47,425 bases of DNA from Candidatus Doudnabacteria bacterium (GCA_016186915.1 JACPKU010000001.1:1-47425), one strand, 5' to 3'. Counted from the first letter of the stretch, positions 11,367 to 28,520 are shown. Notes: generated from the letters alone by a model not told the origin. Made by a program: numbers and translations.

Positions 11367-11395
11367 TTGACAAGCATATAAAAATTTGTTATACT
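11367..11395 (+). promoter_or_regulatory. near-consensus promoter, TTGACA-17-TATACT
   Basis: TTGACA at 11367-11372, 17-nt spacer, TATACT at 11390-11395. It heads a ~470-nt ORF-poor region. Confidence 0.6.
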
Positions 11396-12594: not shown

Positions 12595-12681
12595 TACGTA
12601 TTGTGATGTTAGCAAGTTAGTCGAGCATGCGCGCTAGGCAGTTTAAAGTTCATTACCTGCCTGTCTGGCCTTGCCATTTTT

Positions 12682-12758
12682 GGGCCTGTAGCTCAGTTGG
12701 TCAGAGCAAGTGTCTTATACACACTGGGTCGAAGGTTCGAGTCCTTCCAGGCCCACCA
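12682..12758 (+). tRNA. tRNA-Ile (anticodon UAU), CCA encoded
   Basis: Hand-folded cloverleaf. Acceptor GGGCCTG/CAGGCCC, anticodon stem AGTGT/ACACT, loop CTTATAC, T-arm GAAGG-TTCGAGT-CCTTC. Confidence 0.9.
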
Positions 12759-12843
12759 AGGAATGATATCAGCATGGCGGGCAGGTACACAATTGGTCCT
12801 AGGTTTGAATCCTGGGCGCACACCAAAAAGCTTAATGAAAAAA

Positions 12844-12866
12844 GAAGGCGCGGAAGCGCCTTTTTG
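12844..12866. terminator. bidirectional intrinsic terminator
   Basis: GGCGC-GGAA-GCGCC hairpin (12847-12860) flanked by an A-run upstream and TTTTT downstream. It lies between tRNA-Ile and the convergent prs. Confidence 0.6.
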
Positions 12867-12899
12867 TGGTGCAGGGGCTTTGGTTTGCCGCCTGCAACC

Positions 12900-13862
12900 C
12901 TAGAGAATCATTGGGGAGAGGGATTCCTCCGTATGCAGTCGATTGATGGCTTCAGCCAGAAAGCGATCCATGGAGAGTATTCTGATCTTGGGACACATTG
13001 CGAGACGGTCGGGATCTTGAGGAACACTGTCCGTGACGATCACCTGCTCGATCGGACTTTGATTGATTCGATCTAACGCAGGTCCGGAGAACAGGCCGTG
13101 CGTGGCGAATACCAAGATCCGTTTCGCTCCAGCCTCGCGCGCTGCCTTGGCGTCGGCCTCGATTGTCCCTGCGGTGTCCACCATGTCATCGACGAACAGG
13201 ACATCGCGGTCCTGTACTTCTCCGATAATCTTGACATGGTCGTCATCTACTTTCCCAGGCTCTGATCGATCCTTGGTGAACAGTACGTAGTCAGATTGCC
13301 CCAAGATCTTCGCGTACTTTCCCGCGCGTGGGCCGCCGCCCTTGTCGGGTGACGCGACCACGAATGGCTCAGTCAGCAATCCCTTGAGGTAGTCGATCGC
13401 GATCTTTGAGGCGTAGAGGTGGTCGCTTAGCACTCCGAACAGTCCGAACATGCTGATCGTAGGCTCGGAGTGGACATCGAAGAGCAATACTCGATGACAG
13501 CCGCTGGTCGCCAGCGTTTTGATTACGACCCGCGCTCCCACTGAAACTCTGGGTTTATCCTTGCGGTCTTGGCGGTTGTAGCCAAGATACGGAATCACCA
13601 GCGTGATCCGCCTAGCAGACGACTCTCTGCACGCATCGGTGAAGAGCAGAAGGTCGACGAGGTTCCTCTCGACCTGTGGCGGGCAGATGGAGCCGATGAT
13701 GAACACGTCTGCTCCACGGACGTTTTCTCTGATCCGTGCCAACAGCTCTCCGTCCGGAAACCGGTTCAGGTTGGCCTTCCCCTGCTCACAAAGGAGGTGG
13801 TGGCAGGCCTTCTCGGCCAGTACTGTTCCAGACTCGGTCGCAAATATGATTCTATCGTTCAT
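12900..13862 (-). CDS. prs: ribose-phosphate pyrophosphokinase (PRPP synthetase), high-GC
   Basis: RFPDGE, VIPYLGYNRQDRK, DVHS and VDDMVDTAGT motifs. Start at ATG 13862, preceded by AAGGAGG and a 6-nt spacer. Confidence 0.9.
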   Translation of the reverse strand: MNDRIIFATESGTVLAEKACHHLLCEQGKANLNRFPDGELLARIRENVRGADVFIIGSICPPQVERNLVDLLLFTDACRESSARRITLVIPYLGYNRQDRKDKPRVSVGARVVIKTLATSGCHRVLLFDVHSEPTISMFGLFGVLSDHLYASKIAIDYLKGLLTEPFVVASPDKGGGPRAGKYAKILGQSDYVLFTKDRSEPGKVDDDHVKIIGEVQDRDVLFVDDMVDTAGTIEADAKAAREAGAKRILVFATHGLFSGPALDRINQSPIEQVIVTDSVPQDPDRLAMCPKIRILSMDRFLAEAINRLHTEESLSPMIL

Positions 13863-13900
13863 TCCGTTCCTCCTTAAGGATTGGAGTTGTTGAACATTAT

Positions 13901-13930
13901 ATTGTAGCTGTGGATAAAGGATCTTGACAA
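13901..13930 (-). promoter_or_regulatory. promoter for prs, TTGTCA-18-TACAAT
   Basis: On the minus strand, TTGTCA at 13930-13925 and TACAAT at 13906-13901. The -35 overlaps a + strand TTGACA at 13924-13929. Confidence 0.5.
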
Positions 13931-14039
13931 GAGGTGAACGATCGTTTACCATATATTATGGAAGTCAAATAATCGAAGGAGCTGGCATTATCAATGCCGC
14001 CTGATAGTCCTGGTTCCTTCGAAACTTCCGAAAACGATT

Positions 14040-14684
14040 ATGAAAGAATTGAACCACAAACAGAAAAAATTATTGGAGTTTATTACAGACGAAATTCAGG
14101 GCCGCGGGCTGCCGCCTAGCGTTTCAGAAATGGCTGCATATTTGAAAGTTAAATCCAAAAATGCGGTTGCTAAAATGCTTAATGTTCTTGAGGACAGCGG
14201 ATTGATTAGACGCTCTGGTAAAGCCAGAGGCGTGGAAGTGTTAACAGCACAAGGTAGTGTTGTGAGTAGAGGGCTTATAAATTTACCAATCATTGGCCGA
14301 ATTACTGCGGGTCTGCCCATGCTGGCAGAAGAGCAGATCGAAGACTGGCTGAATTTACCCACAAGCTTGATTAAGGGACGCAAAGATGTGTTTTTATTGC
14401 GTGTTCAAGGCATGAGTATGAAGGACGCGGGCATCTTGGAGAAAGATTTGGTCTTGGTTAAGCAACAAAAAATCGCAGAACCGGGGGATATTGTGGTGGC
14501 GTTGTTGGAAGACGAGGCCACGGTAAAAAGATTGGTCAAGTCCACCAAAGGTGGATCCGCCTCTGGCGGAAAAGATACCAAATTCTTTTTAAAAGCAGAG
14601 AACAAAGCTTATCCCAATATTTACCCTGAGCACGAATGGTCGATCCAGGGGAAAGTAATCGGAGTTGTTAGGAACCTAGAATAA
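14040..14684 (+). CDS. lexA: LexA repressor carrying an in-frame repeat insertion
   Basis: N-terminal winged HTH (PPSVSEMAAYL), cleavage-site region, and S24 peptidase motifs GMSMKDAGI and VKRL. There is an extra KGGSASGGK loop. Confidence 0.9.
   Translation: MKELNHKQKKLLEFITDEIQGRGLPPSVSEMAAYLKVKSKNAVAKMLNVLEDSGLIRRSGKARGVEVLTAQGSVVSRGLINLPIIGRITAGLPMLAEEQIEDWLNLPTSLIKGRKDVFLLRVQGMSMKDAGILEKDLVLVKQQKIAEPGDIVVALLEDEATVKRLVKSTKGGSASGGKDTKFFLKAENKAYPNIYPEHEWSIQGKVIGVVRNLE
14541..14573 (+). repeat. 33-nt GC-rich double-hairpin element, in-frame copy 1
   Basis: TCCACCAAAGGTGGATCCGCCTCTGGCGGAAAA. It consists of two TCC(R)CC-N3-GG(Y)GGA hairpins. Confidence 0.85.
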
Positions 14685-19003: not shown

Positions 19004-19438
19004 ATGTTGAAACAAAATAGAAAAATAATAGTAATTGTTTTTCTTCTAGTCGTAACTGGAACGTTTTTTTTGACCAATGTGTCGCAGGCCGCTTTGGTTA
19101 ATTGCGGTCGCACTGATCCTGCCACCAGACAAATCAGTGAGTGCCAACTTATCGATTTACTCAGAATATTAATAAGTATTATTAATATTCTCCTAGGCCT
19201 TTCCTGGTTAGCCGCTACTTTCTATTTATTCTGGGCGAGTTGGAGTATGGTCATGGCCTTCGGCAACCCAGAAGGTTTGGCTGGAGCAAAAACTTCTTTT
19301 CGCCATGCGATTTTTGGCTTCTTTTTTATTATGATAGCCTTCTTATTGATAAACTTCGCAGTTTTTGCTTTTTCCGGATATAATATAAGAGGGCAGGGTG
19401 AGGAAGGTAGTATATTTAACTTTTTTCCTGCTTTATGA
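19004..19438 (+). CDS. VirB2/TrbC-like (CPR T4SS-pilin family) small membrane protein, divergent paralog 1
   Basis: Signal peptide ending SQA, a Cys pair, then two TM helices flanking FGNPEGLAGAKTSFRHAIFG. Confidence 0.5.
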   Translation: MLKQNRKIIVIVFLLVVTGTFFLTNVSQAALVNCGRTDPATRQISECQLIDLLRILISIINILLGLSWLAATFYLFWASWSMVMAFGNPEGLAGAKTSFRHAIFGFFFIMIAFLLINFAVFAFSGYNIRGQGEEGSIFNFFPAL

Positions 19439-20112
19439 GGCAGATGTCTTTCAAAAAGTACATTTTGCTTTTAATGATAGTCTTGCTGATTCCGTCATTT
19501 GTGACGGCTCAGACGCAATGTGATCCGGCGCAGGGCCCCACTGAAAAGCTTTGTAATGCGGTTAATAATGCAAGCGACCTGCAATCATTTTTTATTAAGA
19601 GCTTAGCTATTTTTGCCTCTTTTACTACTGTCATCCCGATAATGGTAGTGGTTTTTGCAGGGTTTATGATGATCATATCCCAAGGAAATCCGGATACAGT
19701 CACAAGAGCAAAAACAGCGTTGTCCTGGGCTATCTATGGATTTATCTTGGCAGTTTCATCTTATTTTTTGCTTTTCGCGACCACTCAGTTTCTAGGAGCA
19801 ACAGCTATCCCAGATCCTACGAGCCCAAATCCTACCTTTATAGTAAACCCATTAACTAATCTTGGGCCTGATGTGGACAAAGAGTTCGGGGTTTTTCTAA
19901 AAAACATGCTCATAAATTTTATGGGCATTATAGGTGTTGTCGCATTACTCATGTTAATCATTAACGGATTGCGGTATATAACTTCTTTCGGTAACGAAGA
20001 AGCAAGCACCAAGGCAAAGGAAGGAGTCAAGTGGGCAGTAGCTGGTCTTGTCACAGCCTTATTGGCTTATGTTATAATCCGGGCTATTGCATCGTTATTA
20101 GGACTTCCATAA
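19435..20112 (+). CDS. VirB2/TrbC-like pilin-family protein, two-domain paralog 2
   Basis: Signal peptide (VTAQ), Cys pair, and two tandem hairpin modules (ISQGNPDTVTRAKTALSWAIYG and LRYITSFGNEEASTKAKEGVKWAVAG). Confidence 0.55.
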   Translation: MRQMSFKKYILLLMIVLLIPSFVTAQTQCDPAQGPTEKLCNAVNNASDLQSFFIKSLAIFASFTTVIPIMVVVFAGFMMIISQGNPDTVTRAKTALSWAIYGFILAVSSYFLLFATTQFLGATAIPDPTSPNPTFIVNPLTNLGPDVDKEFGVFLKNMLINFMGIIGVVALLMLIINGLRYITSFGNEEASTKAKEGVKWAVAGLVTALLAYVIIRAIASLLGLP

Positions 20113-20121
20113 AGTAAATAT

Positions 20122-20532
20122 ATGAAAGCAATTATTTATTCTTTTATACTAGGTATCTATCTTTTTGTGTCGTTAATAACGACGGCTTCTGTGTTTGCCC
20201 AAGCGCCGACCACGAACGCCAATATTAGCAACCCCGCTCCCGGCTATTTTATTGATTTAACTGGTCAGGGCAAAACAAATACTTTTGGCGATCTTATTCT
20301 TCTGATCGTCGAAGCCATGCTTGGTATCGTTGGTATTTTATCAGTGGCCTTTTTGATCATTGGTGGTTTTCAGTATGTGGCTTCTCGCGGAAACGAAGAG
20401 CAATCTGAATCAGCCAAAAAGACCATTGCTAATGCAATCATTGGCTTGACTATAGTTATTTTGTCGTATGTTATCATCGCGGTTATCGGAAATGCTTTGC
20501 TTGGTCGAACAAGCGGCGGAACCTTCCCTTGA
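20122..20532 (+). CDS. VirB2/TrbC-like pilin-family protein, paralog 3
   Basis: Signal peptide (VFAQA) and the motif IIGGFQYVASRGNEEQSESAKKTIANAIIGLTIVILSYVI. Confidence 0.6.
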   Translation: MKAIIYSFILGIYLFVSLITTASVFAQAPTTNANISNPAPGYFIDLTGQGKTNTFGDLILLIVEAMLGIVGILSVAFLIIGGFQYVASRGNEEQSESAKKTIANAIIGLTIVILSYVIIAVIGNALLGRTSGGTFP

Positions 20533-20534
20533 TT

Positions 20535-20563
20535 TTTACATTTGTAAATATTTATTGTATAAT
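20535..20563 (+). promoter_or_regulatory. promoter, TTTACA-17-TATAAT
   Basis: TTTACA at 20535-20540 and TATAAT at 20558-20563, inside the pilin array. Confidence 0.5.
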
Positions 20564-20628
20564 TTAAAGGTCGAAATGAACTGTGTATAAGTTCGAAATA
20601 TAAATCAAATAATTAAAAACATATTATT

Positions 20629-21039
20629 ATGTTAAAGCAAGTTTCTACAAGGCTAAGCAAGGTTTCGATCCTTGAAATAGCCCAAGTTTTAGCATTAATC
20701 CTAACACTGTTGATGCTGGTTACTCCCCTGATTGCCGGAGCGCAGCAAGGATTTCAAGTTCCTGATCCAGCACAAGGCAACACTGGTCTGCCAGGGGACA
20801 CCTCCATCACAGCTTTCATCATCCGGATCATCAACATTGCTTTGGCAATTGCCGGGTTGGTGGCGGTATTGTTCCTGATCATCGGGGGCTTCCGATATAT
20901 CACAGCAGGCGGCAATGAAGAAGCTGGCGAGTCAGCGAGAAAGATTATTACCAATGCGGTGATTGGTATTGTGGTGATTATTCTGTCGTTCGTGATAGTT
21001 CGAGTAATCTCCAACGCGTTGCTAGGCGGAACAGTATAA
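20629..21039 (+). CDS. VirB2/TrbC-like pilin-family protein, paralog 4
   Basis: Signal peptide (IAGAQQ) and the motif IIGGFRYITAGGNEEAGESARKIITNAVIGIVVIILSFVI. Confidence 0.6.
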   Translation: MLKQVSTRLSKVSILEIAQVLALILTLLMLVTPLIAGAQQGFQVPDPAQGNTGLPGDTSITAFIIRIINIALAIAGLVAVLFLIIGGFRYITAGGNEEAGESARKIITNAVIGIVVIILSFVIVRVISNALLGGTV

Positions 21040-21057
21040 AGAAATTAATTAGCATTT

Positions 21058-21429
21058 ATGTTGAAAAGATTTCCAATCTTTTCGAAGATATCTTTTGCGG
21101 TATTGGGACTTCTGATGCCAATGATAGTCTTAGCCCAAAATATTATTCCGCAGAACCCAACATCACTGCCCGGCAATTCGGGAACCACATTTACGAACAT
21201 TTTCGATTTCTATGTAAGGGTTGTTCTGGCTGTGGTTGGTATTTTGGCTGTCGCATATTTAATTTACGGGGGATTTCGTTATATCACTTCCGCCGGCAAT
21301 GAAGAAGCTACTGAATCAGCAAAGAATATTATTAAGAGTGCTGTTATTGGATTAATTATAGTTATCTTCTCTTTTGTGATCGTGATTGTGATTAGTAATG
21401 CGTTGCTGCCTCAGGGAGCTGGACCATAA
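21058..21429 (+). CDS. VirB2/TrbC-like pilin-family protein, paralog 5
   Basis: Signal peptide (VLAQ) and the motif IYGGFRYITSAGNEEATESAKNIIKSAVIGLIIVIFSFVI. Confidence 0.6.
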   Translation: MLKRFPIFSKISFAVLGLLMPMIVLAQNIIPQNPTSLPGNSGTTFTNIFDFYVRVVLAVVGILAVAYLIYGGFRYITSAGNEEATESAKNIIKSAVIGLIIVIFSFVIVIVISNALLPQGAGP

Positions 21430-21447
21430 ATTAGAAATAAAAATAAG

Positions 21448-21476
21448 GAGCCGTTCGCGCAGGGCGCGAACGGCTC
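21448..21476 (-). terminator. GC-rich intrinsic terminator at the left island edge
   Basis: Perfect 13-bp stem GAGCCGTTCGCGC/GCGCGAACGGCTC with a 3-nt loop. On the minus strand it is followed by CTTATTTTTATTT. Confidence 0.7.
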
Positions 21477-21539
21477 TTGTCGTTCTTGAACGGATCCTTA
21501 TCTCCTTTTGACGGATCCGTCCGGGTTCTCGACGAAGTG

Positions 21540-22505
21540 TCAACGCTTGCAGACGACGTTTGTGGGAGGAATCCAGTTGTCGTCAACATCCGGCCAGCTG
21601 TACCGGTCTCTGCTGAGCCTGATGTTCGAGTATTTTTCGCCGTCAAGCGCTCGTCGCGCTGCCTGTTCAGTGACCATGATCGGGACCTTCAGGGCGTGAA
21701 GTGTCCCGTCGATCTTCTTGGCCACGATCAGTTCGTGCTGTCCGGCTGCGACCACTGGCCTAGCATCGCCTTTTGCGCTATTCATCTGAGAGGCCGTGCC
21801 GATGACACAGCCGTCGAGCCGGACTTCCGTATCGCGGCAGAACCTCTCGGATTCGCAGTCGAATCCGACCAATCCCTTGTCTCCAGCCAGGAAGAAAGTC
21901 TGCCAGTCTCTGGCCTGACCAGCTCCGTAGCCGTAGTAGGACGAGTACGGATACCCCCCGAACCCAACGCCGAACTGCGGGTAGACATTCCCGTACCCGC
22001 CGTATGTAACCTGCCGTAGCGGCGCAGTGGCTGCGTTGTATGCTGCCCAGGCGTCGTGCTGGGCCTGATTGACGTCGAGCCAGGTCGGTCCAGTCAGCTG
22101 GACTGCGTCTGACACCACTGCAGAGGCAAGCGAGCGGAACGGTTGCTGCGTCGGAGTTCGTTGCCGGGTTGATTCAGGCAGATCCTGGCTCTGCCTCTGG
22201 ACGTGAAGGGTCCGGCCGTCAATCACCGCTTCGAACCCGTGAGGTTCGAGCAGGGCGTCGATGGCGCCGAGGTAGTTGTCGACGTCCACTTCTCCGTGCC
22301 AGGTGGCGGAGATCGTGTCGTCGAATATGACCCCAAGTCCCATCTGCCTGCCGAGGGCCGTCACGATGTCCGCAATCGGCGTGGGCTCGGTGAACTCCAG
22401 CACGGCAGCCGGATCCGGCTGCTGCGCGGACACGGGTGTGCCGACGCAGACGACGAGCGCGAGGACGAACGAAACGAGCGTGATGAGCGTGTTATGCTTC
22501 GTCAT
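21540..22505 (-). CDS. island ORF7: secreted protein, STN/secretin-N-like + Gly/Tyr-rich + PEGA-like segments
   Basis: Signal peptide (VSAQQ). IADIVTALGRQMGLGVIFDD...ALLEPHGFEAVIDGRTLHV resembles secretin/TonB short N-terminal domains. It also has YGGYGNVYPQFGVGFGGYPYSSYYGYG, and C-terminal EVRLDGCVIGT..AAGQHELIV is PEGA-like. SD is AAAGGAGGG. Confidence 0.75.
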   Translation of the reverse strand: MTKHNTLITLVSFVLALVVCVGTPVSAQQPDPAAVLEFTEPTPIADIVTALGRQMGLGVIFDDTISATWHGEVDVDNYLGAIDALLEPHGFEAVIDGRTLHVQRQSQDLPESTRQRTPTQQPFRSLASAVVSDAVQLTGPTWLDVNQAQHDAWAAYNAATAPLRQVTYGGYGNVYPQFGVGFGGYPYSSYYGYGAGQARDWQTFFLAGDKGLVGFDCESERFCRDTEVRLDGCVIGTASQMNSAKGDARPVVAAGQHELIVAKKIDGTLHALKVPIMVTEQAARRALDGEKYSNIRLSRDRYSWPDVDDNWIPPTNVVCKR

Positions 22506-22648
22506 TGTGATAGCCCTCCTTTGGGCTGGGAAATTGACGCCTTGGAGGGCGCCATCATGTTGTCTATGTCATTCCGGACTCCGATCCGTCTGCCTCCGGC
22601 AGATGAACCAAGTTCAGAATGACATAAAGATGTTTGTTTTGACTCCAA

Positions 22649-22677
22649 ATTCTAGCAAAAAACCCCTTACTTGTCAA
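22649..22677 (-). promoter_or_regulatory. island promoter 3, TTGACA-N14-TGC-TAGAAT
   Basis: On the minus strand, TTGACA at 22677-22672, 17-nt spacer, TAGAAT at 22654-22649. About 137-nt leader to ATG 22505. Confidence 0.6.
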
Positions 22678-22827
22678 GGGTTTTGCGACCCTTCGCCTGA
22701 CTCATCGAGATTTAAAACTAAAGACATTCGCATCATTCGAATCATTCCACGAACGAAAAAAAAGCAAAATAACCGATTAGGATTAAACAGAGCAGGAGCC
22801 TGGCAGATGTTTGCGCGTAATTCCTGC

Positions 22828-22871
22828 CAAAAGAAAGAGGCGCAGCCGACCGTGTGGTCAAAGCTGCGCCC
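22828..22871 (-). terminator. intrinsic terminator after island ORF6
   Basis: GGCGCAGC (22839-22846) pairs with GCTGCGCC (22863-22870). On the minus strand a TCTTTCTTTTGG tract follows. Confidence 0.55.
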
Positions 22872-22922
22872 TGTTTGTGCTTGGGGCGACTCTAGGTCGC
22901 CCGAAGCGGATTGTTTCCTCCT

Positions 22923-23777
22923 CTAGTTTGTATTTGCTACCATCACACCGGACGGCGGTGGGGTGGCTGGCTTGGGCCCGGTCACCAGTTCGTGAAATTC
23001 GATCACGAACTGCGTTCCGATACCGTCGCCATAGTAGCTGGCACCGTCGCCATCATTCACGCCGAGTTGGATGGTGCCGCTTCCAACCACGTCCGGGTCC
23101 CAAATTTTCAGGGACCCGTGGAATTGCCATTCCGTGCACTCGCCGCGAGCGACGCACAGCCTGGCGATGGCAGCCAGGTACGGGGCGTTGTTCGCCCGCA
23201 GAGTCATCCCCTTCGGCCGGAAGTCCCGGCCAACCGGTGCCCACTGACCATTCCGCTTGATCCGGATTGGCCCGTCCGGATCAGCCACGATGTGAGCCCC
23301 GTCGTTGGAGTACACCTCCCCCGATAGTGTCAGCACCGACTTCACCACCAAGGGGATGTAACCTTGGGGTGAGTAGGTCCCGGCGCTCACGACTGGTACC
23401 CTCGGCCGTTCAAGGAGGTTCTTCGCCGCCAGTTTCGCGGCTTGCCGGTATCTCAGTCTCCGGCCGTCTGCCTTGCCGAAGCTGAGCAGTTCTCGACCGA
23501 ACTGCTCGTCGTCTCCGCCGACGAGCAGTTGGAGCTCTGGCTCTGCCTGACCGACCTTGGCGACTTCGTGATCGTCCGCCATGTAGTCGATCATCCGAAG
23601 CCCGGCCTCGGAGCGGGGATGGAGGTATCGGTCTAGGGCAGGGATTATTCCCCAGGTCGCACCGTAGTAAACCCCCGCAGTGATGAGCGCGAATTTTGCC
23701 CACCATGCGAGTTTCGACCACAGCCAGCGGAGAGGGGCGAAGAGCCCCTGAACGAACGAACGAATTCTGCTAAACAT
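22923..23777 (-). CDS. island ORF6: N-terminally anchored protein with possible LecA/PA-IL-like lectin domain
   Basis: TM helix AKFALITAGVYYGATWGIIPAL. C-terminal IQLGVNDGDGASYYGDGIGTQFVIEF resembles the PA-IL lectin ND...Y.DN.G.F.V.I signature (weak). SD is AAGGGGGGAG. Confidence 0.7.
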   Translation of the reverse strand: MFSRIRSFVQGLFAPLRWLWSKLAWWAKFALITAGVYYGATWGIIPALDRYLHPRSEAGLRMIDYMADDHEVAKVGQAEPELQLLVGGDDEQFGRELLSFGKADGRRLRYRQAAKLAAKNLLERPRVPVVSAGTYSPQGYIPLVVKSVLTLSGEVYSNDGAHIVADPDGPIRIKRNGQWAPVGRDFRPKGMTLRANNAPYLAAIARLCVARGECTEWQFHGSLKIWDPDVVGSGTIQLGVNDGDGASYYGDGIGTQFVIEFHELVTGPKPATPPPSGVMVANTN

Positions 23778-24030
23778 GGACTCCCCCCTTCTTTTTCATG
23801 ACAAGCAATCCAATGATCACGGCCAGAACCACGACTGGCCTCAGAGTGACCGGCACGTCGCTGAGCTTGCTTGCGACTTCGCCAGTTTTCTCCTTGAGCC
23901 AGTGGAACGCATTGGCCGTGCTGTCACGAATACCTTGGAACCACGACTCATTGCCGCCTGCCGTGGGTTTTGGATCGTTGCCAAGCCGCATGCGGTCGAT
24001 CGCGACCAGGTCGGCGTTGGCCTGTGCCAA
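23770..24030 (-). CDS. island ORF5: small tail-anchored membrane protein
   Basis: C-terminal TM helix PVVVLAVIIGLLVM followed by KKKGG. 8-nt overlap with ORF6. Start is uncertain (TTG at 24030 or ATG at 23991). Confidence 0.5.
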   Translation of the reverse strand: MAQANADLVAIDRMRLGNDPKPTAGGNESWFQGIRDSTANAFHWLKEKTGEVASKLSDVPVTLRPVVVLAVIIGLLVMKKKGGVHV

Positions 24031-24048
24031 TACCGTCTGGATTTCCGG

Positions 24049-24624
24049 TTATACCAGCGTGGCAGTGCACCGGAATGGTCCAGTCGAGACTCTCTTCGCT
24101 TCGTCCCACCCCCAGCAGTTGTCTGTCCCGACTTTCTGATAGACCGCTGAGAGCTTGGTGCGCAGCTCCGCCTCGGCCTTGCTGCCCATCTGGCGGCGGT
24201 AGAGGATGAGAAACTCCCTCATCCGCGTGCCGAGGGGATCGAGGCCAGAGGCGATCCGGACATCCAGATCTTCCGCGCGACGCCGGGCTGCTTGTTCTGT
24301 GTGCGGCGGTAGGAGCCCGTAGAGAAGCTCCTTGAGGTCCTGCTGCAGGCTGGGGATGATTCTGAAACCCACACCCAGCAGAACCATGCCGAGGATGACC
24401 ATCCCGGCGATCCGGACCATGCGATCGTCGATCGTCGCCGCCGGGCGAAGGTGATCGATCAGCACTGCCGAGAGCACGAGGATGAGCAGCCCGGAAGTGA
24501 TCGCCCCGCCGGCTGAGGTGCCTAGCAGTGCGTTGATCGTAGGGCCGATCACTAGCACGGCCCCAGCAGCAACGGCGATTTTGGTGGCCAGTGTCTGGCC
24601 ACCACCGGGTGTTGTGTCAGGCAT
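24049..24624 (-). CDS. island ORF4: polytopic membrane protein, unknown function
   Basis: Three TM segments, then a charged soluble tail. The start lies 6 nt after the ORF3 stop, with a GAGGGG SD. Confidence 0.65.
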   Translation of the reverse strand: MPDTTPGGGQTLATKIAVAAGAVLVIGPTINALLGTSAGGAITSGLLILVLSAVLIDHLRPAATIDDRMVRIAGMVILGMVLLGVGFRIIPSLQQDLKELLYGLLPPHTEQAARRRAEDLDVRIASGLDPLGTRMREFLILYRRQMGSKAEAELRTKLSAVYQKVGTDNCWGWDEAKRVSTGPFRCTATLV

Positions 24625-24630
24625 GGCCCC

Positions 24631-26175
24631 TCACTTTCCGATTCCGAAAAGTTTTCTCAGGCCGCGGGAGATTGGTCCCAGCAGTTCCAGGACTTCATCC
24701 ACAGCCAGAATACCCAAAATCCAACGCCAAATGCCTCGGGTGGGTTCACTGCCCTTCCCGCTTCTTCGAGGCGGGCGTTTGGAACCACCAGCCAGGACAC
24801 GGGCGAGTGCGGCCAGCCACGAGGCTGAGCCGCTTCGCTGAGCGCGTTCGGTCTTCTTCTCTGCCCAGGCCTGCAGTTCGTCTGCGAAGGCCAGGAAGGT
24901 GTAGAAGAAGGTGCCGAGCCACATCAGCGCCAGAGTCACCAACCGTTTGATCCAACCCAGTAGCGATTGGTCTGGCAGGAGCCAGCGTGCGACCGGGTTG
25001 AGCGTCCGTTGTGTGAGACCTGGCCTTTCGGACCCGGTTTCTGTCTCTGCCTGTTCGAGTAGTCCGGACTGTCGGAGTTCCTCGATTTCGGCGTCTGTGC
25101 CCGAGTAGCCGAAACGTTCCAAGTTGGAAGCCCGCTGCTGTGCCTCGGTCATCTCACTGCGAGAAACGAAGCTAGGCAGGGGTTCCGGAGTGCCTGGCAC
25201 CCAGATTGTGACAAGGACAGCCACAAGGAGTGCGAGCCAGCAGGTGATGACCCAGACGGTCCACCACCGGTTGTTCGTACCCATGATCCCTTCGAGCCGC
25301 TGGTTGAGCCTCTTCGCCGTGGCCTCGCCTCCCCGGAAGAGACTAATTGCCCAGTAACTCGCTACACTCATTGCGATCAGGCTGGGAAGCAGGAAGCTGC
25401 CGAACCAGACGGTGAGCAAGGCGAACAGCGGTAGCCAGCTCCAGAAGAACCGAAGCTGTGGGTTGCCGCCTTCCCATTCGGCGATGAGGTGCTTGATCGT
25501 GCCGGCTCCGGGTGCGACCGCAGGCGCGCTGGCCTTCGGTCCGTGCAAGACCAGGTCGTAGGACTTGTTGAGCCCCTCCACGAAGATGTCGATCTCCGTG
25601 CGAGGCTCTTCGACTTCGAATTCCCACGACATTCCGCCTTCCGGCACATCCAGGTCACGAATGATGCTGCCGGCGGCGTAGTCCGTGCCGTTGAGTCTGA
25701 CAGCTTCCACTGGCCGCAGGCGGAGCTTGACGGCCTTGGAGTTGTTTTGATCGTTCTTCACGATCAGATGAACCGAGTACCGGTTCGGCGCCAGTCGCCG
25801 CGGCAGCCAGTGGAGCTCGTAGCTCAACAGATCTTCCGTGGCCTTGACCTTAACTGGCACACTGACCGTGGTTTCACGAAACGCGACACCGTCCACGGTC
25901 TCAGCCTTGAGCTTGGTCTGGGCGATGCTGTCCGGAACCTTAAAGATCCATTCAGCCTCACCCTGCAGGTTGGTCGTCGGCATGTTACCGGCTTCCGCGA
26001 TACCATCGCGGGAAAACGCGATAACCTTGCCGTTGATCGGGTTGCCGTCTTGCGTGAAGACTGCCTTCACCTTGACCTCACGCTTGTCTGTGATTTCAGT
26101 CACCAACAGGGTGAGGTTGGTTCGGGGCCTGGGAGGCCCGCCTCCTCTTCTGCCTCGTCCTCTTCCATTTGGCAT
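24631..26175 (-). CDS. island ORF3: RG-rich N-terminus + beta-sandwich-like modules + multi-TM protein, unknown function
   Basis: Start set at MPNGRGRGRRGGG (ATG 26175, GGAGGA 5 nt upstream). About 220 aa of beta-rich sequence, then at least 4 TM helices and amphipathic segments. Confidence 0.75.
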   Translation of the reverse strand: MPNGRGRGRRGGGPPRPRTNLTLLVTEITDKREVKVKAVFTQDGNPINGKVIAFSRDGIAEAGNMPTTNLQGEAEWIFKVPDSIAQTKLKAETVDGVAFRETTVSVPVKVKATEDLLSYELHWLPRRLAPNRYSVHLIVKNDQNNSKAVKLRLRPVEAVRLNGTDYAAGSIIRDLDVPEGGMSWEFEVEEPRTEIDIFVEGLNKSYDLVLHGPKASAPAVAPGAGTIKHLIAEWEGGNPQLRFFWSWLPLFALLTVWFGSFLLPSLIAMSVASYWAISLFRGGEATAKRLNQRLEGIMGTNNRWWTVWVITCWLALLVAVLVTIWVPGTPEPLPSFVSRSEMTEAQQRASNLERFGYSGTDAEIEELRQSGLLEQAETETGSERPGLTQRTLNPVARWLLPDQSLLGWIKRLVTLALMWLGTFFYTFLAFADELQAWAEKKTERAQRSGSASWLAALARVLAGGSKRPPRRSGKGSEPTRGIWRWILGILAVDEVLELLGPISRGLRKLFGIGK

Positions 26176-26335
26176 GTCTGTCCTCCATCGCGCTTTTGGC
26201 GCGGAAACATACTCCACAAAAAGGAGCGATTGAATATATTGAAAGACCGGTTTATTTCACCCGATCTGTTGCTCGGTTGTTAAAGAACCCGTTAGCATGT
26301 TTCCGCACTTAAGCGGGCAGACATGGTAACGTCGC

Positions 26336-26364
26336 ATATTAGCAAAAAAGCCCTGTTTTGTCAA
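26336..26364 (-). promoter_or_regulatory. island promoter 2, TTGACA-N14-TGC-TAATAT
   Basis: On the minus strand, TTGACA at 26364-26359, 17-nt spacer, TAATAT at 26341-26336. About 154-nt leader. Confidence 0.6.
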
Positions 26365-26450
26365 TGGCCGCGAATTTACAAGTTTGAGGGTTTATAAATA
26401 TTCAAATAGCTTACAAAATTAGCGATAGCTAAGAATGTAAGATAGGATTT

Positions 26451-26540
26451 TTATAAAAAAGAGGGTGCTCACTTCGCGATGAAGTGTACACCCTCTGTGT
26501 TGTTCCGGACCCTTTTCGCTCGGGGAGAGCGAAAAGGGTC
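26451..26540 (-). terminator. two tandem hairpins terminating island ORF2
   Basis: A 14-bp perfect stem GACCCTTTTCGCTC/GAGCGAAAAGGGTC at 26508-26540. Then AGAGGGTG.../...CACCCTCT at 26460-26496, followed on the minus strand by TTTTTTATAA. Confidence 0.7.
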
Positions 26541-26554
26541 ACGGGATAGTCATC

Positions 26555-28009
26555 CTATCGCGGCGGGCGCTGCGGCGGGATCGGTTCGAAATGCGGTTTC
26601 GGCGGCATGTCCTGGCCTGGGACGTCGCCGATGATAATGCCGGTCCGCGACTGCTGCTTCTGTCCAAGCTCGGCCACTCGGGCGTTCAGTTGCCGTATCA
26701 TCCGGTCGCGCACCTCCTCGTTGAGAGTGCGCTTGACGCCGAGCATGCCCAGCGGGCCGCGCTTGGGCACGTCCTTGTCTGCGACCTCCATCACTCCTCG
26801 AAGAGCCTCGATGGCGTCCTCTTGGGAGCGATCGGCGCGGTACTGCGCCTCGTTGGCCTTCGCCTCCACGGTCTGGAGCTTGGAGGCGAGGTCGGATCGG
26901 AGATTGGCCACGGCTGTCTCGATGCGTTGCGGCAGTGTCTCGGCGAGACTGCGAACCTCGCCGATTGAGGAGTGGAGCGTGGAAACGTCGGTCTCCAGCT
27001 TGTTTTTGATGGCCGTGTCCGAGGCCTCAGCGTTCTTGCGCGCGGCCTCGATCAGCGCTCTGATACGCTGGTCGCGCTCCGTGAGCTTGCCGTTGAGGTA
27101 ATCAACGGCGTCGGCCACCTCCTCGGAGAAGATGGTGAACAGGACGCCGCCGGAGTCGATGCATTCGCCGGTGCCACAGTCTGTCGTGCCTTTGGGGCGC
27201 AGCAGAAACGTGACCGCGCCGACGTCAGTGTTGTCAGCGATTGCGAGCTTGGCGCTCACCTTGTTCGCGCTCGCTGCGACGTCGTTGGCCGTCACACCAG
27301 CCGGGAACAGCACTGACTCGACGTCAGCCAGTCCCGTTCCAGTGATCACGACTTCGACTTCAGATCCGCGGACCCAGGCATCCGGCGTGATGCCAGACAC
27401 CTTGCCTTGGACCTGGGCGAACGCGGTGTTCGCGGATAGCCCGAGGCAGCAGGTCAGGAAGATGGCTGGCACCGCGGGTCTGCGTGGCACACGGGGCCGC
27501 ACCAGGACGATCAGCACGCCGATTACCAGAACGAAGATCCCCAGGCCACCGAAGATCCCCAGGCCACCGTAGAGCAGCCAGTTGAGCTTCTGGTGCAGAC
27601 GCTCGACACGCCGTCCGATGAGGTCTGGACTCCAGCGTGCGTCTTGCCCGTAGGTATTGTTGATGTTCCTTGAAGCCGTGACCAGGGCATCACGCACAGT
27701 GATTGGATTTTCCTGCGCGTCTTTGCTGATCTCCTGGTCGAGATCGAGCCAATAGCCGACTATCATCGCGTCTGGTTCGGCGGCCGGTTCCTCTGCAGGT
27801 GGCGTTGTCGGTGCTTCGGGCGCTGGCGTCGACTCGGGCTCTAGCTCCGGCTCCGTGGTGGGTTCGTTCTGCTGCGGCGTTGCCGGCGGCTCGGCCGGCT
27901 TCACGATCTCGGGGAGGCGCGGCTGGCGCATACGCTGTTGCGCCTCCAAGCTATTGCTCGCCGCGATGAGTGCGGCGAGTCCGAGAACGAACGCGATGAT
28001 GCGGTTCAT
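26555..28009 (-). CDS. island ORF2: secreted/membrane protein with Pro/Glu-rich linker, IPT/TIG-like domain and long coiled coil
   Basis: Signal peptide (SLEAQQ), P/E/T-rich stretch, a TM with duplicated GGLGIF, a second signal/lipobox-like segment (FLTCCLGLSANTAFAQ), a beta domain (VEVVITGTGL), and ~150 aa of heptad-like sequence. SD is AAGGAGAG. Confidence 0.75.
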   Translation of the reverse strand: MNRIIAFVLGLAALIAASNSLEAQQRMRQPRLPEIVKPAEPPATPQQNEPTTEPELEPESTPAPEAPTTPPAEEPAAEPDAMIVGYWLDLDQEISKDAQENPITVRDALVTASRNINNTYGQDARWSPDLIGRRVERLHQKLNWLLYGGLGIFGGLGIFVLVIGVLIVLVRPRVPRRPAVPAIFLTCCLGLSANTAFAQVQGKVSGITPDAWVRGSEVEVVITGTGLADVESVLFPAGVTANDVAASANKVSAKLAIADNTDVGAVTFLLRPKGTTDCGTGECIDSGGVLFTIFSEEVADAVDYLNGKLTERDQRIRALIEAARKNAEASDTAIKNKLETDVSTLHSSIGEVRSLAETLPQRIETAVANLRSDLASKLQTVEAKANEAQYRADRSQEDAIEALRGVMEVADKDVPKRGPLGMLGVKRTLNEEVRDRMIRQLNARVAELGQKQQSRTGIIIGDVPGQDMPPKPHFEPIPPQRPPR

Positions 28010-28296
28010 CTGTGCTCTCCTTGTCCCGCTTGTGGGACATCCTGAGCGGTGGTTGACGTTCGGCGGACGTTGATCGCCGCCGGTTCCGCGAGGCGACTGT
28101 CCACATCAAACATGACGTCCTTACCGACACGAATCCATGCCGGCACTTGTCCTCGCTTGATGTGGAAACTCTTGCCAACGTGCTCTTGAGGGCCAGTCAA
28201 AGCCTTCACGGTCCAGATGGCCCTTTCCGGATCATCTCTGGAACCGTCGACGGCCTGGACATACCCGGCGCACGCCGGCTGCCCTCTTGCTGTCAA
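28006..28296 (-). CDS. island ORF1: small hypothetical protein
   Basis: Start moved to TTG 28296 (GGAAGGAGG plus a 6-nt spacer), because the tracked start at 28377 lies inside the promoter. 4-nt overlap (ATGA) with ORF2. Confidence 0.5.
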   Translation of the reverse strand: MTARGQPACAGYVQAVDGSRDDPERAIWTVKALTGPQEHVGKSFHIKRGQVPAWIRVGKDVMFDVDSRLAEPAAINVRRTSTTAQDVPQAGQGEHR

Positions 28297-28367
28297 AATA
28301 TACCTCCTTCCAGAACAACGAGATGAACGAATCAAATACCCAAAGGATTTCGGGCAGATGACTTTAG

Positions 28368-28396
28368 ACTTTAGCAATTTTAGGCGTTTTTGTCAA
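28368..28396 (-). promoter_or_regulatory. island promoter 1, TTGACA-N14-TGC-TAAAGT
   Basis: On the minus strand, TTGACA at 28396-28391, 17-nt spacer, TAAAGT at 28373-28368. Confidence 0.6.
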
Positions 28397-28418
28397 CGTA
28401 TCTATGGGCTGATATAAT
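28390..28418 (+). promoter_or_regulatory. tRNA-Leu promoter, TTGTCA-17-TATAAT
   Basis: TTGTCA at 28390-28395 and TATAAT at 28413-28418, 18 nt before the tRNA. The -35 overlaps the divergent island promoter's -35. Confidence 0.6.
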
Positions 28419-28435: not shown

Positions 28436-28520
28436 GCCGCGGTGGCGGAACTGGCATACGCGCATGGCTTAGGACCATGTTCCGAAAGGATTGAGAGTTC
28501 GAATCTCTCCCGCGGCACCA
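28436..28520 (+). tRNA. tRNA-Leu (anticodon UAG), long variable arm, CCA encoded
   Basis: Acceptor GCCGCGG/CCGCGGC, anticodon stem CATGG/CCATG, loop CTTAGGA, variable arm TCCGAAAGGA, T-arm GAGAG-TTCGAAT-CTCTC. Confidence 0.9.

Follow-up and report, generated by a model that had tools for sequence, protein, structure and literature searches.

To our knowledge, the N0 fold serves for docking or ring formation in all known systems and links an outer assembly to a partner anchored in the membrane. Such docking is exemplified by GspD and GspC, PilQ and PilP, InvG and PrgH, FecA and FecR, and by DotD or VirB7 in the cores of type IV secretion systems (T4SS). Members of the Candidate Phyla Radiation (CPR) are reported to be devoid of an outer membrane, PilQ and TonB, no PilQ component having been found (PMC6744442). 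According to the text devoted to them, Patescibacteria possess arrays of 2 to 11 divergent VirB2-like pilins, 441 of which were counted; such an array is essential in Ca. Southlakia epibionticum, the one species tested, and the word "secretin" does not occur in that text (PMC12102498). Here, we analyzed a sequence of 47,425 bp from a Candidatus Doudnabacteria bacterium (GCA_016186915.1, JACPKU010000001.1:1-47425), which is one whole contig and is hereafter called the window. Between an array of VirB2-like pilin genes and a tRNA-Leu gene, the window carries a GC-rich block (21445-28400) of seven open reading frames (ORFs), numbered from ORF1 on the tRNA side to ORF7 on the pilin side.

A first-pass annotation had interpreted this block as a horizontally acquired but domesticated cell-envelope module. 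The comparison with related genomes shows instead a resident, clade-specific, fast-diverging and mosaic envelope cassette of one Candidatus Doudnabacteria subclade, of which the block is the local form, and the locus is best described as a lineage-specific variable envelope locus.

A variable slot in related genomes

We compared 160 related loci, W denoting the window's own. The first-pass annotation had proposed a CPR-like host, in agreement with the nearest relatives in GTDB, which are metagenome-assembled genomes of Candidatus Doudnabacteria with SBP identities of at most 63-64 %. The order tRNA-Ile...ChlI-NTP-transferase-SBP-pilin array-insert-tRNA-Leu(TAG)-FtsH-GPD-like-tRNA-Val-RNase III-SMC is common to the relatives. 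About 25 loci, with SBP identity ≤ 50 %, have an empty site, the pilin array lying 66-350 nt from tRNA-Leu, which is followed by FtsH; relative to these genomes the block is indeed an insertion. In the subclade nearest to the window (SBP identity 53-64 %), 19 distinct loci hold an insert of 3-7 kb in this slot (W, L017, L018, L019, L020, L022, L023, L024, L025, L026, L038, L102, L103, L105, L107, L116, L177, L178 and L180), and the slot of L029 is empty despite an SBP identity in the same range. The inserts are tiled chiefly by minus-strand ORFs. Since homologous cassettes occupy the same site in the relatives, their acquisition, if any, predates the subclade.

Protein families were defined by all-against-all comparison and iterative profile searches. 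The conserved gene that anchors the cassette is ORF7, its family being present in 16 of the 19 inserts, always in the pilin-proximal position and convergent with the pilin array. The ORF6 family occupies the second position in seven loci (W, L017, L023, L024, L038, L116 and L177). The ORF3 family corresponds to two adjacent genes, coding for an Ig-like soluble protein and a membrane protein, in L020, L026 and L180, and to the Ig-like half only in L025; a homolog of this half exists in the distant locus L081, where it is likewise tRNA-proximal. The head gene on the tRNA side is CSD-like in L017, L019, L038 and L116, and Big_1-like in W, L020, L025, L026 and L180. The window thus joins ORF3-type and ORF6-type modules that are found separately elsewhere, which makes its content mosaic. 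With regard to the seven-gene order, whose conservation had been raised in the first-pass annotation, the slot and the position of ORF7 are maintained (16/19), the content is mosaic, and four genes (ORF1, ORF2, ORF4 and ORF5) have no detectable relative anywhere searched.

The distribution of the ORF7 family is narrow. Among 1.84 billion representative proteins scanned exhaustively with HMMER, only 50 members were retrieved at E ≤ 1e-3. Three further members with a readable context (P0006, P0021 and P0039, distant ones included) all lie in the same synteny block, the contig of P0032 being too short to show its neighbors, and every ORF7-family gene with a readable pilin-side flank adjoins a VirB2-like pilin array. 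No member was found outside this locus or on phage or IMG/VR contigs, the plasmid collection not being searched. In a word-indexed search, ORF3 returned itself alone; the full ORF7-family alignment returned two proteins, because words from its low-complexity linker swamped the search, and four proteins once the linker was trimmed.

The inserts share a compositional signature. Their total GC exceeds that of their own flanks in all 19 loci, by 0.04-0.145 where both flanks are measurable, and that of L177 is up to 0.18 above its pilin genes alone. The GC at third codon positions (GC3) was measured in 15 loci, and in 14 of them that of the cassette is above that of the backbone, by 0.05-0.24. The GC of the cassette correlates with that of its host (r = 0.68, p = 0.02) and lies on average 0.10 above it. 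This signature of GC, codons and k-mers, specific to the cassette, persists across a deep clade.

Two loci of the subclade hold additional genes between the cassette and tRNA-Leu: plus-strand ORFs of 537 aa in L023 (19122-20735) and 467 aa in L024 (18880-20283), which are homologous to each other and have neither a transmembrane (TM) helix nor a Pfam match. In distant relatives (L062, L064, L068 and L081), the slot contains minus-strand genes for SPFH/Band-7 proteins, a GT2 glycosyltransferase fused to TM helices, a polysaccharide-synthesis-like membrane protein and an Ig-like protein, and these inserts are not GC-enriched. To judge from these predicted products, the slot appears to be an envelope-gene slot more widely, beyond the subclade.

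The N0 domain of ORF7

The ORF7 gene (21540..22505, minus strand) encodes a 321-amino-acid protein with a signal peptide ending in VSA before QQ, an N0/STN domain (residues ~31-105), a Pro-rich and Gly/Tyr-rich linker and a beta-rich C-terminal domain (~205-300). The first-pass annotation had noticed an STN/secretin-N-like segment in this protein, and profile searches, AlphaFold and Foldseek all strengthened this assignment. A 9-sequence profile already placed the N-terminal domain among STN/N0 domains. Searched against the PDB, a 33-sequence profile matched PilQ (8e-6), the N0-N1 region of GspD/XcpQ (3e-5 to 4e-5), FpvA (2.6e-4) and InvG (9e-3). Individual family members matched STN (9.9e-5), GspD_N0 (1.1e-3) and TcpQ (6e-4) in Pfam, and one gave a weak match to FecR_C (0.014). 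ORF7 was modeled with AlphaFold2 from the 33-sequence alignment, with pLDDT values of 91-98 for residues ~31-105 and 80-93 for residues ~205-300, and a disordered linker in between; an earlier model built from a 4-sequence alignment (pLDDT 38) was discarded. The best Foldseek matches to the model were the N0 domains of EscC, LspD, MxiD, PilQ, InvG and GspD/XcpQ, with a probability of ~1.0, MxiD and InvG being the best structural matches to the N0 domain, with ~75 residues aligned at a root-mean-square deviation of ~2.2 Å. Further matches were DotD, the Xanthomonas VirB7, a FecR-like anti-sigma factor, phage baseplate proteins and pIV of phage f1.

No match to the secretin pore (PF00263) was found in ORF7 or in 33 family members, and the C-terminal domain of ~100 amino acids has no sequence match in the PDB. 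A PEGA segment (PF08308) had also been proposed in ORF7; it could not be recovered with ORF7 itself (E ≤ 1), with 9 family members (E ≤ 0.1) or with 33 (E ≤ 0.01). With profile, AlphaFold and Foldseek results in agreement, we conclude that the N-terminus of ORF7 is a secretin-type N0/STN domain unaccompanied by a pore domain.

ORF7 shares with the N0 domains of GspD/XcpQ/LspD, PilQ and InvG/EscC/MxiD, and with the STN domains of FpvA and FecA, the fold of residues ~31-105, sequence similarity and Sec export. It differs from secretins and TonB-dependent transducers by the absence of a pore or a TonB-dependent barrel, by its length of 321 amino acids and by its unrelated beta-rich C-terminus. 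ORF7 is thus not a secretin, since the pore domain is absent. From TonB-dependent transducers and the FecR-FecI system the island has the STN/N0 fold only, with no match to TonB_dep_Rec, FecR or sigma-70 ECF families in the island or its flanks. DotD of Legionella and VirB7 of Xanthomonas are, like ORF7, small exported N0-like proteins; theirs are encoded with T4SS genes, and ORF7 adjoins VirB2-like pilins. In ORF7, however, the signal cleavage site lacks a lipobox cysteine, and DotD and VirB7 belong to the outer-membrane complexes of diderms. Neither VirB4, VirB6, VirB9 nor VirB10 was detected in the window, whose ORFs of at least 600 amino acids correspond to IF-2, FtsK, FtsH and SMC, and no cassette protein matched TrbL/VirB6 or VirB8. 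The locus is not a recognizable T4SS cluster, because VirB4 and VirB6 are lacking. The genes at 19004-21429 form an array of the kind described in the text on Patescibacteria pilins (PMC12102498), and the island itself contains no pilin. By analogy, the closest counterparts would be the small N0-like proteins DotD and VirB7 and, for the locus as a whole, ordinary tRNA-adjacent variable islets.

Composition of the block

The GC content of the block is 59.5 %, compared with 45.0 % for the remaining contig. The abrupt change reported in the first-pass annotation is sharp and real: in 1-kb windows, GC rises from 0.41-0.42 (19.5-21.5 kb) to 0.54-0.65 (21.5-28 kb) and falls to 0.48 afterwards, and the hand counts given for three 60-nt lines (44/60, 39/60 and 21/60) were all exact on recount. 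GC3 ranges from 0.62 to 0.78 in the seven island genes and from 0.37 to 0.57 in 17 backbone genes, with prs (0.65) as the sole outlier. Codon and tetranucleotide comparisons with the backbone, which the same annotation had called for, showed a strongly deviant island: the tetranucleotide distance to the backbone is 0.50 for the island chunk and 0.10-0.13 for every backbone chunk, and leucine is encoded by CTC in 39 % of cases vs 6 % in the backbone, by TTA in 0 % vs 16 % and by TTG in 6 % vs 34 %. The intergenic stretches of the island are AT-rich and host-like. The seven minus-strand frames display the GC1>GC2<GC3 pattern expected of true reading frames.

Minus-strand location was considered as the source of the high GC and rejected, because other minus-strand genes are not GC-enriched. 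The only other clearly minus-strand gene nearby is prs, coding for ribose-phosphate pyrophosphokinase (12900-13952), which is itself GC-enriched, with a GC of 0.547 and a GC3 of 0.65; it overlaps a 149-aa plus-strand ORF at 12627-13076. Two processes are candidates for the GC excess. One is GC-biased gene conversion at a recombination hot spot, and the other is repeated replacement from an unsampled pool of GC-rich elements, for which the discordance between ORF7 and SBP similarities, described below, leaves room.

Possible origins of the block

Several features of the locus recall mobile DNA, and the block could be what remains of an integrative element or virus of Doudnabacteria that sampling has missed, or a satellite of one, mobilized in trans, with variants replacing each other at the pilin-array/tRNA-Leu site. 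As in tRNA-adjacent islands and prophage remnants, the block neighbors a tRNA gene, deviates strongly in GC, codons and tetranucleotides, consists of orphan genes and is mosaic and variably present, the slot of L029 being empty. Its genes have strong promoters of their own, and resemblance within the ORF7 family does not agree with that of SBP. The N0 fold is known from phages too, in baseplate and tail proteins and in pIV of f1; a CSD/OB-like domain is present in several head genes, and weak matches to PHROGs and to Dit were obtained. But neither the window's island nor 38 cassette proteins of relatives yielded an integrase or recombinase, the 19 cassettes are all devoid of integrases, recombinases, replication initiators and packaging/morphogenesis ATPases, and neither a replication gene nor a Walker A motif was found in any cassette protein. 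With regard to inoviruses, the cassettes contain no Walker A motif and no relevant Pfam or PHROG match for a pI/Zot-type ATPase or a rolling-circle initiator. A repeat search revealed no flanking direct repeats (att) pairing the island ends, and the insert is located 5' of a tRNA gene that is intact and retains its promoter. Site and orientation are constant across a deep clade, ORF7 is always pilin-proximal, and cassette GC tracks host GC. Finally, tblastn of ORF2, ORF3 and ORF7 against 50,697 phage genomes gave no match, ORF3 and ORF7 found nothing in IMG/VR, and a single-protein scan of JGI metagenomes was equally negative. In contrast to tRNA-adjacent mobile islands, the protein families of this island are confined to its site. 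Because integrase, att site and ATPase are all missing, the block cannot be classed as an integrative element or inovirus, and we consider it unlikely to be the remnant or satellite of an unsampled element.

A recent one-off acquisition from a high-GC donor such as the bacterial host of the episymbiont, followed by domestication, which is the form taken here by the acquired and domesticated module of the first-pass annotation, fares worse. The sharp GC step (0.595 vs 0.45), the very different codon usage and the AT-rich, host-like intergenic regions would agree with it. However, no homolog was found in genomes outside the clade (5.8e9 clustered and 1.84e9 representative proteins), and equally GC-shifted homologous cassettes occupy the same site in relatives of 53-64 % SBP identity. 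With no donor found and diverged cassettes at the same slot in 19 related loci, the island cannot be called horizontally acquired in the sense originally stated, and we regard a recent transfer as very improbable.

Gene organization and predicted regulatory signals

All seven tightly packed minus-strand ORFs that had been described between the pilin array and tRNA-Leu were found again, and independent gene calls on Logan contigs gave the same products of 96, 484, 514, 191, 86, 284 and 321 amino acids. The couplings between genes (overlaps of 4 and 8 nt, gaps of 6 and 18 nt) proved exact, and strong ribosome-binding sites (RBSs) are readable along with them. The proposal of three transcription units, each with its own promoter and terminator, is likewise supported at the sequence level. 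The motif TTGACA-N14-TGnTAnnnT occurs four times in the whole window, compared with 0.02 matches expected by chance, and three of these matches are the island promoters, upstream of ORF1, ORF3 and ORF7. The fourth, at 11367-11395 on the plus strand just downstream of recA, is the only perfect -35 plus extended -10 promoter outside the island.

All three units end with a GC-rich hairpin followed by a T-run. The ORF1-ORF2 operon would be transcribed from a promoter at 28368..28396 (minus strand; TTGACA, 17-nt spacer, TGcTAAAGT), back to back with the tRNA-Leu promoter, and its predicted terminator (26449..26501, minus strand) is an inverted repeat forming a hairpin with 21-nt arms followed by TTTTTT, a second hairpin of 13 bp lying just upstream. 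The ORF3-ORF6 operon has a predicted promoter at 26336..26364 (minus strand; TTGACA, 17-nt spacer, TGcTAATAT), which shares 82 % identity over 28 nt with the ORF7 promoter region, and a strongly structured 5' leader of ~150 nt (26176..26329, minus strand; z = -4.2, 0/200 shuffles as stable). Its putative terminator (22829..22870, minus strand) consists of the hairpin GGCGCAGC...GCTGCGCC followed by TCTTTCTTTT; it was read directly from the sequence and is not among the minus-strand sites of the terminator scan. The promoter assigned to ORF7 (22649..22677, minus strand) combines TTGACA, a 17-nt spacer and TGcTAGAAT, that is, a consensus -35 and an extended -10 element. The ORF7 leader of ~137 nt (22506..22642, minus strand) would fold into a long hairpin and a second one pairing the RBS (GGAGGG) with an upstream CCCUCC, with a folding energy of -56 kcal/mol (z = -6.3; 0/200 shuffles as stable), and this paired RBS suggests translational control. 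Between the last pilin stop (21429) and the ORF7 stop (21540), a GC-rich hairpin of 13-15 bp, T-rich on both sides (21446..21478), was flagged on both strands by the scan and is predicted to be a bidirectional terminator shared by the convergent units. No Rfam family matches the island, structured leaders included. Three near-consensus sigma-70 promoters with extended -10 elements and two structured leaders are thus apparent, and they are presumed to be active. The description of the block as a cell-envelope module with host-type promoters is in keeping with these data.

The other six products

Every product had been described as having a signal peptide or TM helices. This is true of six of them; ORF1 has neither predicted, so that membrane or secreted proteins make up six of the seven products. 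No enzyme, integrase or phage gene had been recognized, and scans of all seven proteins against Pfam, PHROGs and NCBIfam, which returned nothing significant, revealed no such family either.

ORF1 (28006..28296, minus strand, 96 aa) is predicted to be soluble; it starts with TTG, 6 nt after AAGGAGG, and its stop overlaps the ORF2 start (ATGA). It has no match of its own to the CSD profile (PF00313), and hhalign aligns it to the N-termini of the head genes with 31 % probability over 37 columns. The head genes of L017, L019 and L038 match CSD at 2e-5 to 4e-3, and ORF1 is possibly a degenerate CSD/OB-like module resembling the head-gene N-termini in L017, L019, L038 and L116.

ORF2 (26555..28009, minus strand, 484 aa) is an orphan described here from its topology and weak profile matches. 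Its signal peptide is followed by an acidic Pro/Glu/Thr-rich spacer, a TM helix and a basic loop; then come a second hydrophobic, signal-like segment that ends in AFAQ, a weakly Ig-like region and, on the C-terminal side, a helical region of ~150 amino acids. Of the IPT/TIG domain and coiled coil formerly attributed to it, the helical region is present and the domain is reduced to weak Ig-like matches; a profile search of the PDB with ORF2 found nothing. Where the TM helix begins, 18 nt are perfectly duplicated in tandem (27532-27567), giving GGLGIF-GGLGIF. The signal peptide of the pilin at 21058-21429 ends with VLAQ, the sites in ORF2 are LEAQ and AFAQ, and A27 and Q28 are nearly invariant in the ORF7 family. 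These common Ala-Gln endings suggest that ORF7, ORF2 and the pilin may share a processing site.

ORF3 (24631..26175, minus strand, 514 aa) starts with the ATG at 26175 after GGAGGA and has an RG-rich N-terminus, Ig-like modules (residues ~1-240) and at least three TM helices in its C-terminal part, with no signal peptide. Its Ig-like nature is indicated by the matches of its homologs in L020 to Big_1 (4.6e-6) and in L081 to Big_3_5 (1.1e-5), and by a match to a PKD domain in the PDB (1e-4). ORF4 (24049..24624, minus strand, 191 aa) is an orphan with three TM helices, and ORF5 (23770..24030, minus strand, 86 aa) an orphan with one C-terminal TM helix and an 8-nt overlap with ORF6. ORF6 (22923..23777, minus strand, 284 aa) has an N-terminal hydrophobic anchor, clear in its homologs and weak here, and a beta-rich extracytoplasmic domain, with no match in Pfam or the PDB. 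A LecA/PA-IL-like motif previously suspected in it is not borne out, as there is no Pfam match at E ≤ 1 and the family profile finds no PDB lectin at E ≤ 10.

Neighboring genes and assembly integrity

The flanks contain the housekeeping genes for IF-2, FtsK, RodZ, RecA, LexA, a ComM/ChlI-like protein, FtsH, RNase III, SMC and RNase Y. Outside the island, on the plus strand and convergent with ORF7, are five tandem, highly divergent paralogs of VirB2-like pilins (19004..21429), whose first-pass designation as a pilin array is substantiated by PF18895 (T4SS_pilin). The other boundary is tRNA-Leu(TAG) (28436..28520, plus strand), with the island on its 5' side. Anticodon TAT (UAU) is uncommon among bacterial tRNA-Ile. 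The window has a tRNA-Ile with this anticodon at 12682-12758, and the close relatives examined (L017-L026) all keep it in that position, upstream of the ChlI-SBP block. Compared with the window, L017, L023 and L024 have the ChlI/ComM-like gene that precedes the SBP-pilin block in inverted orientation, synteny being otherwise kept.

The pilin/ORF7 junction is present, at 99.99-100 % identity, in Logan assemblies of at least six runs (SRR12113383, -384, -385, -420, -422 and -430, and also -424). The SRR accessions were also looked for in the literature, where none turned up. Several of these contigs cover the window from 14541 through the whole island to tRNA-Leu, and all of them stop within this tRNA (28476-28510). 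The left-flank RecA and right-flank RNase Y proteins are present in the same runs, and the tRNA-Leu-FtsH order is conserved in relatives, so that the right-hand join is the native arrangement. The chimerism that the first-pass annotation had wished to see checked is therefore not supported at either end. Although every Logan contig carrying ORF1 ends in tRNA-Leu, with no single independent contig running from the island to FtsH, and although GC-rich DNA yields many chance ORFs in all frames, an assembly chimera or spurious ORFs from non-coding DNA can be dismissed as extremely improbable, given the contigs from at least six runs extending into the tRNA, both flanks in the same runs, the conserved pilin array-insert-tRNA-Leu-FtsH order and, for the minus-strand frames, the GC1>GC2<GC3 pattern, RBSs, homolog families and a confident fold.

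K-mer assemblers usually stop at sequence shared between genomes. Two breakpoints recur among the Logan contigs, one inside tRNA-Leu (28476-28510) and one at 14541 within lexA, and suggest that strains occurring together share sequence or vary there. Compared over up to 14 kb, four Logan contigs differ from the window at position 27915 (A/C) only, a difference that changes codon 32 of ORF2, just past the signal peptide, from Leu to Arg. Owing to this nonsynonymous polymorphism, the exact ORF2 protein is not on record; an exact-protein look-up did not find the exact FtsH protein of the window either.

Proposed function and significance

Expression of the cassette from the opposite strand and assembly of its products across the envelope complete the resident-cassette interpretation, which, taken with these two components, we regard as probable, though far from secure. 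Given the role of N0 as a docking or ring module in known systems, we propose that ORF7, once exported by the Sec pathway, would dock through its N0/STN N-terminus to a membrane-anchored partner, for which the N-anchored, beta-rich ORF6 would be the prime candidate. ORF1 and the Ig-like N-terminal half of ORF3 may be cytoplasmic or membrane-proximal parts; the C-terminal half of ORF3, ORF4 and ORF5 would supply polytopic and small membrane proteins; and ORF2 would be a surface protein with two membrane spans, an Ig-like region and a long helical stalk. Together, ORF7 and ORF2-5 could build a structure spanning the wall or lying on the surface where cells meet, which might serve the adjacent VirB2-like pili. 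Their rapid divergence and module shuffling would reflect selection at a surface exposed to hosts or phages. Together with the structured leaders, these two features agree with a function that is regulated, exposed at the surface and under diversifying selection, and a role in host contact is a reasonable inference.

Several observations weigh against this interpretation. First, the inserts of L018, L025 and L107 have no ORF7-family gene, and ORF1, ORF2, ORF4 and ORF5 are without relatives, so that their coding status depends on composition, RBSs and topology. Second, similarities within the ORF7 family do not follow those of SBP (rho = -0.15), and the window's ORF6 and ORF7 are closest to those of L024 whereas its SBP is closest to that of L017, a discordance that leaves room for lateral exchange of cassettes; as a test of vertical inheritance, ORF7-vs-SBP divergence was uninformative, the subclade being star-like. 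Third, codon usage and tetranucleotides are still far from those of the host, which is unexpected in an old resident locus. Fourth, the function is deduced from one well-supported domain, and ORF6, the putative N0 partner, has no detectable similarity to the HR domain of GspC/PilP or to FecR. Moreover, as all family members lie in the same locus, the link with the pilins is inseparable from inherited synteny, and their functional association is hypothetical. The reach of the cassette is also narrow, as it is confined to one Doudnabacteria subclade.

A bolder scheme, which we put forward as doubtful, would make the cassette a new trans-envelope apparatus of a monoderm-like CPR bacterium, in which the N0 docking module of secretins would be employed anew in the absence of their pore. 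ORF7 would form a wall ring or adaptor on a platform of ORF6 and ORF3-5, with a CSD/Ig-like cytoplasmic part, and would act with the VirB2-like pili in host contact or in the transfer of nucleic acids or proteins, the GC excess resulting from a locus-specific process such as GC-biased gene conversion at a hot spot of recombination subject to diversifying selection.

The resident cassette, as observed in the relatives, has implications of its own. Its compositional deviation is stable and does not signal recent transfer, which challenges the equation of deviant composition with recent acquisition. It is also unusual that a lineage in which no PilQ was found (PMC6744442) should use an N0 module of the secretin type. 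For the way in which CPR bacteria build and anchor their surface appendages, an exported N0 protein encoded beside a pilin array would thus provide a testable candidate for an accessory envelope structure.

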